Below, in pieces: positions 5,762-23,615 of a stretch of 64,000 nt of DNA (position 1 is its first letter; each line of letters opens with the position of its first letter). The DNA comes from Escherichia phage W115. The DNA lies in the sequence record ON286974. One strand, written 5' to 3'. Under the pieces are notes generated by a model. It made no database searches, was not told where the DNA came from, and was given only the letters and a program-made list of their open reading frames with translations. Made by a program: the position numbers and the translations under genes.

Positions 5762-6532
5762 ATGAATATTATCCGAATAAAACTACCGGAAGGTGTGCAG
5801 AGATTTAAACCATTCACGGTAAAAGATTATAGAGATTTCCTTCTGGTGTCAACTGAAATTAAGATGAATCCAGAAGAAGAACAAACGATTCTTGATGAGC
5901 TATTAGAAGAAATATATCCAGACGTAGATCCGGCATTTCGTGAATATATTTTCCTGAATGTCTTTACTAGTTCAATTGGTAAAACTAAGATACCGCTTTG
6001 TTTTACTTGCCCGACTTGCAACAAAGAAAGAAGAATGTTGCTTAACTTACAGGTTGAAGCACTAAAACCAATCGTTCTAGAGGCCGCAGGGCTTAAAATA
6101 ACTTTCCGGTATGTTAAACCATCAACCGACTATGCAAAAACGTTTCTGGATGCGATAGAGCGTGTATCTGATGGTATTAATGACTATCTATGGACTGAAT
6201 TGCCGGAAGAAGTTAGAGAACAGGTTATCGATTCAATCTCATTTTCTGAATTTGAAGAAGTTGTTAAGCAGATGCACACAATCAAGATCGAACAAAAGAT
6301 ATCTTGTTGTGAGAGTCATGACCTGAAATACATAGGTCTTCTTCCATTATTCAAATTGTTGTTGAATCCAGATGAGTTATTCATCTTTTATCGAATAAAC
6401 CATCTATTGGCAAAATCAAATTATTCTATCAGTGATCTTATGGACATGTTACCCGTCGAGAGAAACATTGCACTGACACTGGTCGAGAAAGACGTAAAAG
6501 AGGCAAACAATGCAAAGAACGGGGTTTCCTAA
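5762..6532 (+). CDS. 51: baseplate hub assembly protein gp51
   Basis: 256 aa; first gene of the conserved 51-27-28-29-48-54 block; CxxC pairs. Confidence 0.65.
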   Translation: MNIIRIKLPEGVQRFKPFTVKDYRDFLLVSTEIKMNPEEEQTILDELLEEIYPDVDPAFREYIFLNVFTSSIGKTKIPLCFTCPTCNKERRMLLNLQVEALKPIVLEAAGLKITFRYVKPSTDYAKTFLDAIERVSDGINDYLWTELPEEVREQVIDSISFSEFEEVVKQMHTIKIEQKISCCESHDLKYIGLLPLFKLLLNPDELFIFYRINHLLAKSNYSISDLMDMLPVERNIALTLVEKDVKEANNAKNGVS

Positions 6533-7619
6533 TGTCTCAATAAAACTTTATCAGGATTATGAGGCATTTCTAAATCATCGCTTTATAGAATTGGGTGCTA
6601 CCTTTGTTACAATGACTCTGCGTGATTCGATTCGTGGGGTGAACGAAGGATTGTTGCAATTCTATGATAATAAGGCGATGCATACAAAATTAAACGGGAG
6701 AGAGATCATTCAGATTTCGCTATCCACTGCTAATACAGATGAAGTGTTTAACCGAATCTATGGGATCTCTCATAGTAATGTAACAATTGACCAAAAATCC
6801 GACAACATTTTAACATTCCAGTTAAAGAGCTATCACGAATCATTAAACCTTAAATTTTCTCGCTCATTGACAAATAACGCGGTTAATAACGTAACTAGCA
6901 TGATTGATGCCATCTATAAGGAAGTTCCTTTATGGAAACCTACTATAAAGGGTGATAACGTTGTTATTCCTCGTTGTCCGTGGGTTAGTACCATAAATGA
7001 CTATATGGATTTTGTGAGGGCATACGGGCAAAGCGTAGAAACCGAGTCTTTCGTGTATTGCTGGGAAGATTTTGATGGTATAACGATCGCTGGACACGAT
7101 ACAATATTAAAAAATGAGCCAATACCAGCTATAATCTGTGAGCCTAGACTCATGGGGCAGTTTATTGATATGTCGCCTAATCTGATGGTTTTTAATTTCG
7201 AGTGGCAGACTAAGAGCAATGCTAAAGTTAAAAATTCATTTAGCAATGTAACATACACAACTATTGATTTTGTTACTAAGCAGTATAATAAAATTATTGT
7301 TGGTAATGGGGATAACATTGCACACTTTGCTCATGGTGGCGCTTATGGCGATTTAACTTATAAGAATGCGTTTTTGGAAGGTTCTAAACTTGCCACAATA
7401 GAACAATATGATTCATATGCTACCGCCGTGTGTCACGGTAATTTTTCGTTGCGCCCCGGTATGGTTATTCGATTCTTTGATGAGAAGCAACAAGCACGCA
7501 ATGATTTTATTGTTGACGAAGTTGTGCATGAAATTAGCCGAGAGCAATCATTAACTCACCTGTATATGATCGGTAACAGCGAAGAATTACAGGAAGTCAA
7601 ATTTGAAGGTAAGATATAA
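6510..7619 (+). CDS. 27: baseplate hub subunit gp27
   Basis: 369 aa; synteny and N-terminal similarity to T4 gp27 (GFPNVSIKLY). Confidence 0.7.
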   Translation: MQRTGFPNVSIKLYQDYEAFLNHRFIELGATFVTMTLRDSIRGVNEGLLQFYDNKAMHTKLNGREIIQISLSTANTDEVFNRIYGISHSNVTIDQKSDNILTFQLKSYHESLNLKFSRSLTNNAVNNVTSMIDAIYKEVPLWKPTIKGDNVVIPRCPWVSTINDYMDFVRAYGQSVETESFVYCWEDFDGITIAGHDTILKNEPIPAIICEPRLMGQFIDMSPNLMVFNFEWQTKSNAKVKNSFSNVTYTTIDFVTKQYNKIIVGNGDNIAHFAHGGAYGDLTYKNAFLEGSKLATIEQYDSYATAVCHGNFSLRPGMVIRFFDEKQQARNDFIVDEVVHEISREQSLTHLYMIGNSEELQEVKFEGKI

Positions 7620-18050: not shown

Positions 18051-18064
18051 CACTTTTTATAAAA

Positions 18065-18232
18065 TTATTTGTTAATTTCTGGTGCGTTGCTCGGATAGTA
18101 ACCTTCTTTAACACCCAGATATTTTGCAACCATCCCTACAATCTTCTGTGCTACTACAATGTCAAATTTCAGATAATCTTCGCCGTGGGTTTCAATGATA
18201 TATGCTTCACATGCTGCTTTAGTCTCGAACAT
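18065..18232 (-). CDS. hypothetical 55-aa protein, copy 1 of a duplicated gene
   Basis: MFETKAACEAYIIETHGEDYLKFDIVVAQKIVGMVAKYLGVKEGYYPSNAPEINK; near-identical DNA copy at 21852..22019. Confidence 0.5.
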   Translation of the reverse strand: MFETKAACEAYIIETHGEDYLKFDIVVAQKIVGMVAKYLGVKEGYYPSNAPEINK

Positions 18233-18265
18233 TTTGATTCTCCTATTTCGTTTCGGTATGTGTGT

Positions 18266-18933: not shown

Positions 18934-19024
18934 TGTTTGATTCTCCTAAGTGGTATCTCGTTTCGATGTGTGTATTATGCTATGGGCGTGATCTGGTGTC
19001 AACAACTTTTTTAAATTTTTGGAA

Positions 19025-19050
19025 ATAAAAAGCCGACACTAAGGTCGGCA
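19025..19050 (-). terminator. rho-independent terminator (gccgac-actaag-gtcggc family)
   Basis: Hairpin plus U-run on minus transcript; same hairpin recurs at 19529-19554. Confidence 0.55.
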
Positions 19051-19053
19051 CAT

Positions 19054-19308
19054 TTAAAAATTCTTGCTATATATGCAAGCCTCATAATCTAGAGGATGAC
19101 CGCCAATCCTACCAGGCTTAATATTCCAACCGCATCGATATTTGCTGACCATGCTAACCGTTTCGGTTCTTAGAGCATTTCTTTGCAAATCATACCCCCT
19201 AAATTCTTGTCTATAAGGACAGTCCGCTTTGCAAGTTGGTGGTTCTACGTCATTTAGCGGGTCAGAAGCAGTTGGCTTTATTATCAATTCTTTGTTTGCA
19301 ATAATCAT
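19054..19308 (-). CDS. hypothetical Cys-rich protein (84 aa)
   Basis: Start re-assigned to ATG 19308 (MIIANKELI...); four Cys. Confidence 0.4.
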   Translation of the reverse strand: MIIANKELIIKPTASDPLNDVEPPTCKADCPYRQEFRGYDLQRNALRTETVSMVSKYRCGWNIKPGRIGGHPLDYEACIYSKNF

Positions 19309-19441
19309 AAGCACATCCCATTGAAGACAATTTAACATCTTCGCAATAAGTGTTGAATCCGTCAAATACAATCACTTCGTATTTGACTCCATCGGCGATA
19401 GCTTTTACTTTATACCATCCATGCTTGTATAAAATCTTCAT
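19262..19441 (-). CDS. hypothetical Cys-containing protein (59 aa)
   Basis: Start re-assigned to ATG 19441 after GAGGGAAA RBS; overlaps next gene. Confidence 0.4.
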   Translation of the reverse strand: MKILYKHGWYKVKAIADGVKYEVIVFDGFNTYCEDVKLSSMGCAYDYCKQRIDNKANCF

Positions 19442-19528
19442 CTTTATTTCCCTCAATCTCGTTTCGATGTGTGTATTATGCTATAGGCTAGACCAGGTTG
19501 TCAACAACTTTTTTAAAATTTTATGCAA

Positions 19529-19554
19529 TAAAAAAGCCGACACTAAGGTCGGCT
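19529..19554 (-). terminator. rho-independent terminator (second copy of gccgac-actaag-gtcggc hairpin)
   Basis: Identical stem to 19032-19049 with U-run. Confidence 0.55.
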
Positions 19555-19561
19555 AATAAAA

Positions 19562-19870
19562 TCATTTAGACAAATAATCTTTCAGTGCAATCCGGTCGGC
19601 ATGTTCCGGCGTTACGTCAATCGCAATCACTTTAACTCGTGCTTTCTTGCGACCTGGGTTTTCTCGTAACCAGTGCTCATGACCGTGAACATTTTTATAC
19701 TGCGATGCTTCTTCGAAGGTACGGATCGGACCTGGGTAATCAGCGTAAAGGATCTCTAGATCTTCGGTGATGTAAAAATATACATCGTAATTGCTGTTCT
19801 CTAGTTTAAGCAGAGACTTTCGGAACATTGGGAGATTTTCGCGGGTAAATTCAAAGATATTATCTTTCAT
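19562..19870 (-). CDS. HxHW/VIAVDV small-protein family member A
   Basis: 102 aa; YFYITEDLEILYADY ... HGHEHW ... VIAIDV. Confidence 0.5.
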   Translation of the reverse strand: MKDNIFEFTRENLPMFRKSLLKLENSNYDVYFYITEDLEILYADYPGPIRTFEEASQYKNVHGHEHWLRENPGRKKARVKVIAIDVTPEHADRIALKDYLSK

Positions 19871-19894
19871 AGTATTATCCTCAATAGTTGGATG

Positions 19895-19916
19895 AAAAGG
19901 GGGGCTTAACGCCCCG
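19895..19916 (-). terminator. rho-independent terminator (ggggc-ttaac-gcccc family)
   Basis: Same hairpin core as 15372-15386. Confidence 0.45.
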
Positions 19917-19920
19917 TATA

Positions 19921-20208
19921 TTAAAACAGTCCTTCCTGTACACCGTAGTAGAGTTCATCGCTGATAATTTCATTAATGCGACGGTGTGCATATTCCTGAT
20001 TTGCGAAGTTATCAGCAAGTTCTACTTTAGTTTCTCCGTCATGAGTCCATTTAGTGATAACTTTACCATCTGCAAATTTGAAGTTGAACTCTTTAGCTAC
20101 TGCATCGCGTACCAGACGTGCGAACTTGTTATTACGGATTGCATTATCGGTTTCGTGTGCAGCGTGAGCGAATTTGTTAACTTTCAGAGTGATAGTAATG
20201 TATGCCAT
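19921..20208 (-). CDS. hypothetical protein (95 aa), paralog of 23218..23529
   Basis: Shares RLVRDAVAKEFNFK / REVRKALAKEFNTK segment with the 23218 gene. Confidence 0.5.
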   Translation of the reverse strand: MAYITITLKVNKFAHAAHETDNAIRNNKFARLVRDAVAKEFNFKFADGKVITKWTHDGETKVELADNFANQEYAHRRINEIISDELYYGVQEGLF

Positions 20209-20289
20209 AATTTGATTCTCCTAGTTAGAAAGTGTATCTCGTTTCGATGGGTGTATTATGCTATACACCCTCTCGCGTGTCAACACTTT

Positions 20290-20568
20290 TTATAAAATAA
20301 TTTTTTGATATTTTTCTATGATGTTTGTGTAATCCACATCAACCGCTATCACCGTTGCTTCGAATCCACCGTTTAGCCAATGGCTATGGTCATGATCGTG
20401 AAAGAAACCAAGACCAGTACGAAGACCTTCTTTATATTCGGCGCGTACATTTAGATCATCATCGATAAACAGATAAAACCATGAATTTTTACTAGGATTG
20501 ATGATACAACCTTTCAGATTAGGGAGAATATCACGACTAAGAATAAACTTATCACCTACTTTGAACAT
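20290..20568 (-). CDS. HxHW/VIAVDV small-protein family member B
   Basis: FYLFIDDDLNV ... HDHDHSHW ... VIAVDV; start re-assigned to ATG 20568 (GAGGA RBS). Confidence 0.5.
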   Translation of the reverse strand: MFKVGDKFILSRDILPNLKGCIINPSKNSWFYLFIDDDLNVRAEYKEGLRTGLGFFHDHDHSHWLNGGFEATVIAVDVDYTNIIEKYQKIIL

Positions 20569-20572
20569 AATA

Positions 20573-20893
20573 TTAGTCCTCATTTATAAGGTCAAACCAA
20601 TTGTTTTTCGCATAATGCTTAATGCGTGCTTGATCTGCTTCCGCTGGTGATAGATTCCATGCAACCACTACAACTTCTGACGCATCGTCATCCGTTTCTG
20701 ATACCCAATGATTGTGATTCATACAGTTATTTGCGATCGAGTGAGCAAATGATTTCATCACTGGAGACGTATAATCATAGTAACGGATTTTCAGATTTTC
20801 ATCAACGTACAAATAGATCGTATAAGGTTTATATTCAGTAACCAGTAACAGACAGTTACGCAATTCTGGGAAAATCTTTTTAGTTAATTTCAT
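20573..20893 (-). CDS. HxHW/VIAVDV small-protein family member C (divergent)
   Basis: IYLYVDENLKI ... NHNHW ... VVVVAW; start re-assigned to ATG 20893. Confidence 0.45.
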   Translation of the reverse strand: MKLTKKIFPELRNCLLLVTEYKPYTIYLYVDENLKIRYYDYTSPVMKSFAHSIANNCMNHNHWVSETDDDASEVVVVAWNLSPAEADQARIKHYAKNNWFDLINED

Positions 20894-20894
20894 T

Positions 20895-21113
20895 TTATAA
20901 TCCTCGGTCGCGGCTATAGTACACGGTACGCCATACAATTTCATGTTTCGTGTCGCTCCAGCACACGATCTCATTTACTCTTAAATCTTTGTTATCAACA
21001 AAAGATGAACATTGTGACGCTTCTTTCATCATTTTATCTGCTGTTTTCTCATCAAATACAGCACAGATTTCTTTATACACTCGATAATCTTTGAATTGAC
21101 TCTGAATACCCAT
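20895..21113 (-). CDS. hypothetical protein, paralog of 21073..21336
   Basis: Shared pattern KxYxxIxxV...AxKMMxxASxCxSF with the next gene; start re-assigned to internal ATG. Confidence 0.4.
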   Translation of the reverse strand: MGIQSQFKDYRVYKEICAVFDEKTADKMMKEASQCSSFVDNKDLRVNEIVCWSDTKHEIVWRTVYYSRDRGL

Positions 21114-21336
21114 AATTAACACCATTCCAACCAATTGTTTTTGAGAAAACGTTTATCCACTGTTGAGTGTAACATGTTTCTTTCCATGATACAATACGAG
21201 TAGAATAATGGTTTTTGTTTCCAGAAAAGGACGGGCATTTTGATGCATCTTCCATCATCTTTTCGGCGAACTCTGGTGCGTATACTCGCAGGATCTGTTG
21301 ATATGCTTTGTATTCTTTAAATTTGCTCATAATCAT
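21073..21336 (-). CDS. hypothetical protein, paralog of 20895..21113
   Basis: 87 aa; same motif pattern. Confidence 0.4.
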   Translation of the reverse strand: MIMSKFKEYKAYQQILRVYAPEFAEKMMEDASKCPSFSGNKNHYSTRIVSWKETCYTQQWINVFSKTIGWNGVNYGYSESIQRLSSV

Positions 21337-21595
21337 TCACTACCTTATCAGCTTCTTTTGTTGTTTTTACATCAACTGCGATAACTCGTAAAGGTTCGTC
21401 ATGGTTCCACCAGTGGTCATGAATATCAGCTTGTGATTTATCACCAAAGGAATCACGAATATCATTTTTACATTTATAGCTAATGTGACCTTCATAGTCA
21501 ACATAAAGGTAATTATCGAAAATCGGCGTTTTTAAGATCATACCGAAAAATCTTTCTTTGTGTGTCTTATCCAGCGTTGCAGTAATTCGCATCAT
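21317..21595 (-). CDS. HxHW/VIAVDV small-protein family member D
   Basis: YLYVDYEGHISY ... HDHWW ... VIAVDV. Confidence 0.5.
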   Translation of the reverse strand: MMRITATLDKTHKERFFGMILKTPIFDNYLYVDYEGHISYKCKNDIRDSFGDKSQADIHDHWWNHDEPLRVIAVDVKTTKEADKVVNDYEQI

Positions 21596-21607
21596 AATAT
21601 ATTCCTC

Positions 21608-21787
21608 TTAGAAAGGGATGGTCATTTCTTGAGCTTGTACATTCTCGTTAGGATTAAACTTCATCCAGCCGATATTGTCTACCAGCATATGCACATTTTT
21701 ATCATATCCTACGTGAGTAGTCAACACTAAATGTGCTTTATCTTCAATGATGAGTTCCATGTACTTCTGAACTTCGATAGCTTTCAT
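21608..21787 (-). CDS. hypothetical small protein (59 aa)
   Basis: Unlisted ORF MKAIEVQKYMELIIEDKAHLVLTTHVGYDKNVHMLVDNIGW... behind a PeSL promoter. Confidence 0.4.
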   Translation of the reverse strand: MKAIEVQKYMELIIEDKAHLVLTTHVGYDKNVHMLVDNIGWMKFNPNENVQAQEMTIPF

Positions 21788-21851
21788 TTTGATTCTCCGT
21801 TTGTTGTCTTGATGGGAGTATCTTACTACTCCCTTTAATCATTGTCAACTA

Positions 21852-22019
21852 TTATTTGTTAATTTCTGGTGCGTTGCTCGGATAGTAACCTTCTTTAACA
21901 CCAAGATATTTTGCAACCATTCCGGTGATCTTCTGTGCTACTACGATATCGAATTTCAGGTAGTCTTCACCGTGGTTTGCTACAATGTACGCTTCGCATT
22001 CTGCTTTAGTCTGGAACAT
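21852..22019 (-). CDS. hypothetical 55-aa protein, copy 2 of duplicated gene
   Basis: MFQTKAECEAYIVANHGEDYLKFDIVVAQKITGMVAKYLGVKEGYYPSNAPEINK; track ORF extends upstream through the promoter. Confidence 0.5.
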   Translation of the reverse strand: MFQTKAECEAYIVANHGEDYLKFDIVVAQKITGMVAKYLGVKEGYYPSNAPEINK

Positions 22020-22053
22020 TTTTGATTCTCCTATATCTCGTTGGTATGTGTGC

Positions 22054-22082
22054 ATTATAGGGGATCGGTGATCCCCTGTCAA
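22054..22082 (-). promoter_or_regulatory. PeSL-type early promoter
   Basis: TTGACA, palindrome GGGGATCACCGATCCCC, TATAAT. Confidence 0.6.
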
Positions 22083-22087
22083 CAACT

Positions 22088-22381
22088 TTATAATGCTTTA
22101 TATGCGTATTTCATAAATTTGTCTGCCACTTCATTGGCATGTTCAGATTCTACGCCTGATTCGAGAACAATAGCTAGGTCGGTTTCGTCATTCCCGCCGT
22201 ACCAATGATTTGATGTTCGATTTTTTTCAATTGGAAATTGGTCACTTTTATCTGTGCGACAAAATACATCTAAATGCTCGTCGATGTAAAAGATCCAATC
22301 TTCATAAAGAATAACGGTATTAGCAAGATTTTTATTGCCTTCAACGAAAGGTTCGGCTACAAACAAATTAGTATGTTCCAT
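22088..22381 (-). CDS. HxHW/VIAVDV small-protein family member E (divergent)
   Basis: IFYIDEHLDVF ... SNHW ... LAIVLE; start re-assigned to ATG 22381. Confidence 0.4.
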   Translation of the reverse strand: MEHTNLFVAEPFVEGNKNLANTVILYEDWIFYIDEHLDVFCRTDKSDQFPIEKNRTSNHWYGGNDETDLAIVLESGVESEHANEVADKFMKYAYKAL

Positions 22382-22397
22382 AGTATTTTCCTCAAAA

Positions 22398-22574
22398 TTA
22401 TACAGCTTCGTAAACTTCCCAATGTCCAACACCAGCACGCTTAACGAAAAGGTTTTCTTTGATGTTATTCATAAACGTCTGGATGGATTTAATGCGGTTT
22501 GAAGGTTTCCATTCTTCGTTTGCATTGCGTCGATACATCATAACATTACCAGTTCGCTTATATTCAGCAACCAT
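22398..22574 (-). CDS. hypothetical small protein (58 aa)
   Basis: Start re-assigned to ATG 22574 after GAGGATAA RBS. Confidence 0.35.
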   Translation of the reverse strand: MVAEYKRTGNVMMYRRNANEEWKPSNRIKSIQTFMNNIKENLFVKRAGVGHWEVYEAV

Positions 22575-22646
22575 TTTAAGACCACACATAATATTATCCT
22601 CAATTTGTGGGAGAGTATTACCCCTCCCAATGATTGTTATGTTATA

Positions 22647-22949
22647 TCACACAAAATGGCGTGTCAATGCTTCTTTTGCGGTTCCGCTAAGATTCTCGAT
22701 CTCTCCTGGCATAACATCAACCGCAAGAACTTCTACAACATCCTCTGATCCTAACCAGTGAGTATGACCTTTGTAGAACTTGATATCCCATTTATCGCTA
22801 TCGCTAGCCCACCACACATCACCGTCGATAAAGTTGATGTAAAGCACACTACGCCACATTGAATTAATTACTTTCAATACTGCGCCTTTCATCTCTTCCA
22901 CGGTGTGGTCTTCCATTTTGAAGACCTCGCCTACCTTAACTTTTGCCAT
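22647..22949 (-). CDS. HxHW/VIAVDV small-protein family member F
   Basis: LYINFIDGDVWW ... GHTHW ... VLAVDV. Confidence 0.5.
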   Translation of the reverse strand: MAKVKVGEVFKMEDHTVEEMKGAVLKVINSMWRSVLYINFIDGDVWWASDSDKWDIKFYKGHTHWLGSEDVVEVLAVDVMPGEIENLSGTAKEALTRHFV

Positions 22950-22966
22950 TTAGTCACCTCTCTTTA

Positions 22967-23146
22967 TTACATAACAATCACGCCAGCCGTTGAAAGTTGA
23001 TGTTTCAACTGAGCATTTTCTGCTACCGTCAAATCAATGATTTCTTGTGACGCTGCAATCATATAGCCATTGGTGATATTGTTTTGCATCAGTTCAATGG
23101 TTTCTTCGTTGTAGCGGATTTTAGCGATGATTTCGTTGAAGTTCAT
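22967..23146 (-). CDS. hypothetical small protein (59 aa)
   Basis: True start MNFNEIIAKIRYNEE...; upstream MLTGDHRSP... of the track ORF is promoter sequence. Confidence 0.4.
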   Translation of the reverse strand: MNFNEIIAKIRYNEETIELMQNNITNGYMIAASQEIIDLTVAENAQLKHQLSTAGVIVM

Positions 23147-23180
23147 AATTGATTCTCCTAGTTCGTTTCGGTATGTGTGT

Positions 23181-23209
23181 AGTATAGGGGATCGGTGATC
23201 CCCTGTCAA
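23181..23209 (-). promoter_or_regulatory. PeSL-type early promoter
   Basis: TTGACA, palindrome GGGGATCACCGATCCCC, TATACT. Confidence 0.55.
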
Positions 23210-23217
23210 CAACTTTT

Positions 23218-23529
23218 TTAAAGTTTTTCCATGATAACGGTCATAATTATATCTTCTGCGCGAGCGGTCAGATTATCAGCGTCAGCATGTGGGCGGTTGG
23301 TTGTTACAGAGATAACACCGTTGCGCACTGGTTTGATGTTGATATCAAGATGATCCGCGAAACGTTCGCCAGTTACAGAATGAATTTTGGTGTTAAATTC
23401 TTTTGCCAGTGCCTTGCGAACTTCACGAATCAGGGTAGCGTTTTTCAGTTGGTTCTCCGCGCTCATGGTCTTCTGGGTGTTCATGGTTCCGTCGAAGTCA
23501 ATCATTGGCAGCGTTACGATGTATTTCAT
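23218..23529 (-). CDS. hypothetical protein (103 aa), paralog of 19921..20208
   Basis: True start MKYIVTLPM...; shared REVRKALAKEFN segment. Confidence 0.45.
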   Translation of the reverse strand: MKYIVTLPMIDFDGTMNTQKTMSAENQLKNATLIREVRKALAKEFNTKIHSVTGERFADHLDINIKPVRNGVISVTTNRPHADADNLTARAEDIIMTVIMEKL

Positions 23530-23615
23530 TTTTGATTCTCCGTTTAAGAAAGTGTGTTTCGTTTTGATGTGTGTAGTATAGGGGATCACCGATCCCCTGT
23601 CAACAACTTTTTGAA

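Follow-up and report, generated by a model that had tools for sequence, protein, structure and literature searches.

The window, by which we mean the whole 64,000-nucleotide stretch of W115 DNA that was analysed, comes from an RB49-like T4-type coliphage and includes the hyperplastic region that runs from alt to gene 30, limited by alt and a DNA methyltransferase gene on one side and by HNH and DNA ligase gp30 genes on the other. In T4, the small alt.1 alone separates alt from gene 30; the whole block is therefore lineage-specific accessory DNA. No T4 homolog of the six genes considered below was found in the T4 alt-to-gene-30 and 30.x region, and the HxHW motif that characterizes their products is also absent there. 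These six open reading frames, singled out in a preliminary description of the sequence, are all present on the minus strand (A to F in Table 1). Each has a GAGG-type Shine-Dalgarno sequence 6–9 nt 5' of its ATG; B starts 4 nt past the stop codon of C, so that its Shine-Dalgarno sequence lies inside the 3' end of C. The predicted proteins have isoelectric points of 4.5–6.4 (E, at 4.5, being the most acidic) and no apparent signal peptide or hydrophobic segment.

Table 1. Features of the alt-to-gene-30 region of W115 (positions are those of the window; an empty cell means that no strand applies or is given)
Feature	Position	Strand	Remarks
Member A	19562..19870	minus	102 aa; RB49 ORF197 equivalent; HEHW at 19670-19681; phrog_9345
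Member B	20290..20568	minus	92 aa; ORF199 equivalent; HSHW at 20377-20388; phrog_17255
Member C	20573..20893	minus	106 aa; ORF200 equivalent; HNHW at 20705-20716; phrog_9345
Member D	21317..21595	minus	92 aa; ORF203 equivalent; HDHW at 21410-21421; phrog_15972
Member E	22088..22381	minus	97 aa; ORF206 equivalent; SNHW at 22202-22213; phrog_15965
Member F	22647..22949	minus	100 aa; ORF208 equivalent; HTHW at 22755-22766; phrog_16486
PeSL early promoter	23181..23209	minus	TTGACA-17-TATACT with GGGGATC...GATCCCC stem-loop between hexamers; heads ORF209 - F - ORF207 - E
PeSL206/205 promoter	22054..22082	minus	12/12 consensus; just downstream of E; heads ORF205 - ORF204 - D - ORF202 - ORF201 - C - B
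PeSL promoter	20255..20283	minus	upstream of ORF198 and A
Terminator-like hairpin	19901-19915		between ORF198 and A
Terminator-like hairpin	19535-19554		3' of A
172-nt direct repeat, copy 1	18064..18235		ORF191/ORF205 gene duplicate
172-nt direct repeat, copy 2	21851..22022		87% identical to copy 1

The region had been described as early and promoter-rich, and the counts agree: at a threshold of at least 10/12 there are 13 sigma-70 matches where 3.7 ± 1.9 would be expected, every one of them on the minus strand, and at the stricter threshold of at least 11/12 there are 8 sites where 0.35 would be expected. The region has eight copies of a 66-nt repeat with TTGACA-17-TATA(A/C)T, and several of them contain a GGGGATC/GATCCCC stem between the hexamers. 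The two copies of the 172-nt repeat bracket a 3.8-kb block that holds A–D. Neither Rfam nor tRNA scans gave a match in the region.

This organization is that of the PeSL-flanked ORFan cassettes of T4-type hyperplastic regions (Arbiol et al. 2010, PMC2839356, where PeSLs are defined; 2014 follow-up, PMC4122927), of which the following features were found: (i) a hyperplastic location with conserved core genes on either side, (ii) flanking PeSLs, each with a stem-loop and a consensus sigma-70 promoter whose upstream region is AT-rich, and (iii) variable presence among close relatives, with a crossover inside a PeSL. A lacZ fusion of PeSL206/205 yielded ~13,000 Miller units, the activity of a strong promoter (PMC2839356); together with the promoter sequences, this reporter assay of one PeSL suggests that the six genes are early ones. 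Both the phage group and the locus are shared with that study, in which the six genes are among the 'ORFans' of RB49/phi1 ORFs 190-211. The portions of the paper reached by term searches handle these genes as unrelated database orphans and do not state the paralogy of ORFs 197, 199, 200, 203, 206 and 208; its subject is the vehicle (the cassette), not the proteins carried.

That the six genes form one paralogous family, as first proposed by eye, was established by two profile-based comparisons that gave homology well above chance. In leave-one-out HMM searches, the omitted member was sought among all 353 ORFs of the window and was in every case the top non-training match (E values: A 5e-14, B 2e-8, C 5e-12, D 3e-9, E 9.5e-5 and F 4e-7), the best unrelated window ORF scoring 0.02 or worse. 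With hhalign and subfamily profiles enriched in orthologs, all 15 pairs were recovered at 73–99% probability (E ≤ 3e-5). Neither method revealed a seventh member among the 353 ORFs, and a paralogy of ORF198 and ORF210 suspected by eye was unsupported by BLASTP at E ≤ 0.01. The preliminary description had set C and E apart as divergent; this holds for E, which is an outlier together with F, but not for C, which is the nearest paralog of A (52 bits; hhalign E 9e-22). Orthologs of the six are already held in five PHROG families (Table 1), one of them shared by A and C, each labelled 'unknown function' and kept separate from the others; because of the leave-one-out HMM and hhalign results, we join them here as a single superfamily.

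The HxHW-type motifs originally reported were found again in all six proteins (Table 1) and are followed, from A to F, by VIAIDV, VIAVDV, VVAWNL, VIAVDV, VLESGV and VLAVDV. The SNHW of W115 E is HNHW in most E orthologs. A comparison of 33 diverse family members showed that HW is invariant and the other histidine of the motif near-invariant; the paired histidines and the tryptophan are the sole invariant signature of the family, kept by paralogs that are only 20–30% identical to each other. AlphaFold2 models of A (pLDDT 86, pTM 0.81) and B (pLDDT 86, pTM 0.80) are two independent and confident predictions that share one topology. The predicted layout is a short strand 1, a helix and three further strands, followed by a variable loop specific to each paralog, the H-x-H-W element opening a short helix, strand 5 (V-I/L-A-x-D-V) and a C-terminal helix. 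The family consists of soluble, acidic-to-neutral alpha/beta proteins of ~95 amino acids, and no solved counterpart of the predicted fold was recognized. Since only three residues are invariant, a purely structural role of the motif would also fit.

The preliminary description could not match the family to a named one, and our searches lead to the same conclusion: scans of Pfam, NCBIfam and PADLOC and a profile search of PDB sequences stayed at noise level, their best matches (PROCT, E 0.003; T4_Y03C, 0.1; DUF4314, 0.1) being at chance level. Characterized anti-defence, host-takeover or ligand-binding proteins gave no significant match, either in sequence or in fold. Readings of the histidine motif as a HIT triad, a cupin motif or an HNH motif were rejected: those motifs are spaced differently and have other residues around them, and no family or fold match spoke for any of the three. 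The HxHxDH motif of the metallo-beta-lactamase superfamily, set in an alpha-beta/beta-alpha sandwich of ~200 amino acids or more, was not found, nor was the catalytic Cys-His pair of the papain-like fold (Cif, C39 peptidases). The closest known systems include the small DUF2829-fold phage proteins Tad2 and AcrIIA7, anti-defence binders or sponges (both of which we take to belong to DUF2829) and the Tas1 immunity protein PA14_01140 (PDB 6ox6_B). None of the 33 members matched Pfam DUF2829 at E ≤ 1, and no significant fold similarity to the solved Tad2 or AcrIIA7 structures was detected. Searching the literature for RB49 locus tags or protein accessions gave no results, and the main text of the accessory-gene preprint of Silas et al. 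(10.1101/2023.04.06.535777) mentions none of RB49, Krischvirus, T4-like, JSE or Phi1.

A census of 20 loci gave 2 to 6 family members per genome, with no member found in all isolates. Cognac has E and F only and is missing the 3.8-kb A–D block; phiS, G5211 and PTE-Eco09 have A–D without E and F; FL04 has only F and an ORF207::E fusion; in JSE and KMB43 the place of B is taken by a second C-like gene, and A and E of JSE are frameshifted. The Cognac junction is a chimera in which the body of ORF191 (ORFan191) switches to PeSL206/205 sequence at the SD/ATG. Members come and go in blocks via PeSL/repeat recombination. All members whose genomic context was traced belong to Krischvirus or to a diverged T4-like relative; a contig of the latter (ligase 72% identical) has two members at the same locus, between ligase/HNH and alt. 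A scan of IMG/VR with one protein gave two loci only. A 203-aa protein in which two family domains are fused in tandem was seen in one contig only (L002, short and metagenomic) and could reflect an assembly or frameshift artefact.

Our leading reading, which we put forward tentatively, is that the six are immediate-early accessory proteins acting stoichiometrically, as small binding modules rather than enzymes. The conserved HxHW element would provide a common putative interaction, ligand or metal site, and, through the variable loop and the surface beside HxHW, each paralog would recognize a different host factor, most plausibly one of host defence or takeover; the single natural tandem fusion hints that the proteins may form homo- or heterodimers. 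A somewhat unlikely alternative is that each is a KOW/SH3-like module whose binding partner is nucleic acid, the ribosome or RNA polymerase and through which host or phage gene expression would be adjusted early in infection. We also regard as unlikely that each is a small metal-dependent enzyme, such as a hydrolase or phosphoesterase whose substrate is a nucleotide signal or a modified nucleotide; the two histidines would then coordinate the catalytic metal, perhaps where the subunits of an oligomer meet, and the paralogs would have different substrates. Similarly improbable is a bolder proposal of a new fold class of dimeric counter-defence proteins with the HxHW pocket (for a metal or nucleotide signal) at the interface, each of six or more paralogs neutralizing a different host immune signal or effector, within an 'anti-defence island' of Krischvirus shuffled by PeSLs. 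Neither metal or nucleotide binding nor an anti-defence role was backed by homology or a significant fold match. The proteins might instead counter co-infecting phages or other mobile elements and not host immunity, by excluding superinfection or by inhibiting homing endonucleases or satellites. The early accessory context suits this reading equally well, and HNH endonuclease and DNA methyltransferase genes border the region; the proteins are, however, without the membrane segments that superinfection-exclusion proteins often have, and we consider it quite improbable.

The preliminary description had also suggested diversifying duplication, and this claim did not stand. Distinct F-, B-, D-, C- and E-like members already exist in diverged relatives, which makes the six subfamilies old, and each of the six ortholog groups is under purifying selection (dN/dS 0.10–0.29, with synonymous divergence reaching 0.55). 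The variable loop 5' of the motif has a dN/dS of 0.02–0.35, which is not elevated, and in B, C, D and F not one nonsynonymous change falls in the motif codons. Positive selection was found neither overall nor in the variable loop; arms-race genes often show it, and the lack of any such sign in these sequences counts against our leading reading. That the genes are functionless passengers, kept only through copying by PeSL recombination and mini-circles, would agree with their PeSL-bounded cassettes and with the lack of a member common to every isolate (see also PMC2839356), but is very improbable: this constraint in all six groups argues strongly against it, and the invariance of the motif among such distant paralogs and the retention of subfamilies in the relatives with the 72% identical ligase also speak against it.

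The 'ORFans' of T4-like hyperplastic regions are normally taken as unrelated; here, 6 of ~20 genes are one old family, which turns five 'unknown' PHROGs into a single testable target. Should the proteins serve anti-defence or host takeover, as in the binding-module reading that we favour, the family would add a new protein class, and PeSL shuffling would be spreading a family of related effectors, not random cargo. The natural isolates without A–D (Cognac) or without E–F (phiS, G5211 and PTE-Eco09) are ready-made isogenic-like comparisons.

The six small minus-strand ORFs A–F (A at the low-coordinate end) constitute a single paralogous family. The preliminary description had proposed this and had quoted the motif of each ORF; the ORFs were found at the coordinates it gave and the motifs are exact, with a GAGG-type ribosome-binding site 6–9 nt ahead of each ATG. 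BLASTP scores between members range from 52 bits (A–C) down to about 22 bits (E–F). When each member in turn was omitted from an HMM searched against the full set of 353 window ORFs (40 aa or longer), it invariably ranked first among the non-training matches (E 5e-14 to 9.5e-5), with unrelated ORFs at E 0.02 or worse. Subfamily profiles, built after orthologs and diverged members had been collected, were related by hhalign in 15 of 15 pairs (probability 73–99%, E ≤ 3e-5). Neither HMM nor hhalign searches found a seventh member among the window ORFs. C and E had been regarded as divergent; this holds for E, together with F, and not for C, the paralog nearest to A. Searches of Pfam, NCBIfam, PADLOC and PDB sequences were all negative, in agreement with the lack of a named family noted initially, and PHROGs splits the six into five separate families of unknown function. 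The HW dipeptide of the HxHW motif does not vary across 33 diverse members, and conservation of the His two residues ahead of HW reaches at least 90%. HNHW is found in most E orthologs and the window copy departs from it (table); the first His can therefore be replaced in one lineage or more, and RB49 appears to share this variant (its subfamily score is identical to that of the window).

Coordinates of family members and associated features (L numbers denote related loci or contigs)
Feature	Location	Remark
A	window 19562–19870	RB49p197, 'hypothetical protein'
B	window 20290–20568	RB49p199, 'hypothetical protein'
C	window 20573–20893	RB49p200, 'hypothetical protein'
D	window 21317–21595	RB49p203, 'hypothetical protein'
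E	window 22088–22381	RB49p206, 'hypothetical protein'
F	window 22647–22949	RB49p208, 'hypothetical protein'
Motif of E	window 22202–22213	SNHW
172-nt direct repeat	window 18064–18235 and 21851–22022	87% identical copies
PeSL tail and hairpin	window 19007–19062 and 19511–19566	duplicated
ORF195/196-like block	window 19054–19456	
Hairpin between ORF198 and A	window 19901–19915	
ORF201 equivalent	window 20895–21113	
ORF202 equivalent	window 21073–21336	
ORF205 gene match	window 21880–22039	160 nt
Tandem fusion	L002 823–1434	203 aa
ORF207::E fusion	L006 (FL04) 6240–6758	172 aa
88-aa gene beside F	L011 7428–7694	JSE EpJSE_00215
88-aa gene beside F	L013 7312–7578	
88-aa gene beside F	L018 7200–7466	
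ORF resembling ORF201/202 by eye	L025 9451–9660	69 aa

Window 19000–23600 is 95–98% identical to genomes of Krischvirus (RB49-like T4-type coliphages, Straboviridae). The family lies within a run of ~25 small genes, flanked at one end by alt and a gene for a DNA methyltransferase and at the other by genes for an HNH endonuclease and DNA ligase (gene 30); in T4, alt.1 alone separates alt from gene 30, and no family member was found in that region. Among 1.84 billion representative proteins searched exhaustively with HMMER, just 19 clusters reached E ≤ 0.001. All 90 word-index matches were orthologous to one of the six members, many being on phage-sized contigs (163–176 kb) and the remainder on shorter contigs only. 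A diverged T4-like metagenomic contig (ligase 72% identical) carries two E-like members between ligase/HNH and alt, and a 2.1-kb contig of another relative (L002) encodes, in order, F-like, tandem fusion, D-like and C-like genes. The subfamilies are therefore older than the split of these relatives, and the locus has been conserved. A–F thus represent a real, old and lineage-restricted paralog family.

The tandem fusion, known from this one short metagenomic contig only, is a single ORF joining two B-like domains, each with HNHW. An 88-aa gene beside F in JSE, G37-3 and G2248, absent from the window, shows a weak alignment over the full length of the family profile (E about 0.004, six-sequence search), with HPGNGHL where HxHW is expected, and probably represents an additional, degenerate subfamily. 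The 88-aa JSE protein C4MZ33, possibly the product of the same gene, was matched weakly by Foldseek (E 8e-3).

AlphaFold2 models of A and B, computed from family alignments (pLDDT 86 for both; pTM 0.81 and 0.80, respectively), share one predicted topology: a short strand, a helix, three strands of which the last two form the Y-L-Y-I-D hairpin, a loop of lower confidence, a short helix opening at HxHW, strand five (V-I/L-A-x-D-V) and a C-terminal helix opening at E-A-D. The loop ahead of HxHW shows the greatest length and sequence variation between paralogs. No hydrophobic segment is obvious in the proteins, and their pI values lie between 4.5 and 6.4. With Foldseek, BFVD yielded no confident match beyond uncharacterised Krischvirus-phage proteins and unnamed entries, leaving a confidently predicted fold without a match.

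The region had also been described as promoter-rich, and 8 promoter matches of at least 11/12 were indeed observed against 0.35 expected, all on the coding strand. It is densely populated by PeSL elements, the 'promoter-early stem-loop' cassettes described for RB49 and phi1 (PMC2839356): a 66-nt repeat present in eight copies has near-consensus -35 and -10 hexamers, several copies with a G/C-rich stem between them. PeSL206/205 lies directly downstream of E; according to that account its lacZ expression was strong (about 13,000 Miller units) in the only wild-type clone that was recovered. Member A lacks its own promoter and is preceded by a G/C-rich terminator-like hairpin, which the annotation of phage G37-3 gives as a terminator, so that its expression would require read-through.

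Presence and absence were scored in 20 Krischvirus loci. The complete F-E-D-C-B-A set occurs in 12, that of the window among them; Cognac has E and F only, phiS, G5211 and PTE-Eco09 have A–D only, and FL04 has only F and an ORF207::E fusion (one ORF, arising from a genuine fusion or from a frameshift in sequencing). In JSE and KMB43 a second C-like gene takes the usual position of B, A and E are frameshifted in JSE, and one IMG/VR locus has a truncated B and lacks A. No single member is common to all isolates. In the window, a 3.8-kb block containing A–D is bracketed by the 172-nt repeat, a duplicated 55-aa ORF (RB49 ORF191/ORF205 equivalents, 89% aa identity). Cognac lacks this block and retains one chimeric copy at the junction, in which ORF191 sequence switches to PeSL206/205 sequence at the SD/ATG, the same crossover zone as that mapped in PeSL mini-circles by Arbiol et al. 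(PMC2839356).

Pooled Nei-Gojobori dN/dS values for A to F are 0.23, 0.10, 0.29, 0.22, 0.21 and 0.15; those for the 16-codon loop ahead of the motif are 0.02 to 0.35, and motif codons in C and D show much synonymous and zero nonsynonymous change. A–F are functional genes under constraint, not junk, and an ongoing arms race is not visible at the close-ortholog level. Early-promoter context and cassette-wise turnover accompany purifying selection. We tentatively propose, at slightly less than even confidence, that A–F are small stoichiometric binders, expressed immediate-early, for host takeover or counter-defence. HxHW would be a functional site common to all paralogs, the adjacent variable loop would set paralog specificity, and dimerisation may occur, as the fusion seen only once suggests. 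It is unlikely that they are KOW/SH3-like expression regulators and slightly less likely that they are small metal-dependent enzymes; a factor in inter-element competition is improbable. Functionless passengers are contradicted by selection and very improbable.

Databases already list A–F as hypothetical proteins, and the surrounding cassette mechanism is published; term searches of the accessible literature returned no statement of A–F paralogy and no mention of locus tags or accessions. What is added is the unification of six genes into one family, its invariant signature, the lack of a solved structural counterpart and the existence of natural deletion variants. A–F form a new family inside a known kind of system, the early accessory genes in hyperplastic regions of T4-type phages, and their value is chiefly that of a well-defined candidate in functional screens.

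Other small elements share the locus. The ORF195/196-like block, flanked by the duplicated PeSL tail and terminator hairpin (GCCGACACTAAGGTCGGC, then a T-run), looks like another PeSL cassette; many relatives lack it, their matches beginning only at query position 457. The ORF201 and ORF202 equivalents, adjacent paralogs (40% identity, E 1e-15) overlapping by ~40 nt, form another small paralog family lying among A–F, and an ORF in diverged contig L025 resembles them by eye. A stretch within the small ORF205 gene is matched at 69% identity in Escherichia phage vB_EcoS_swi2, an unrelated 47.6-kb siphovirus, which suggests that this mini-gene has been exchanged horizontally between phage families.
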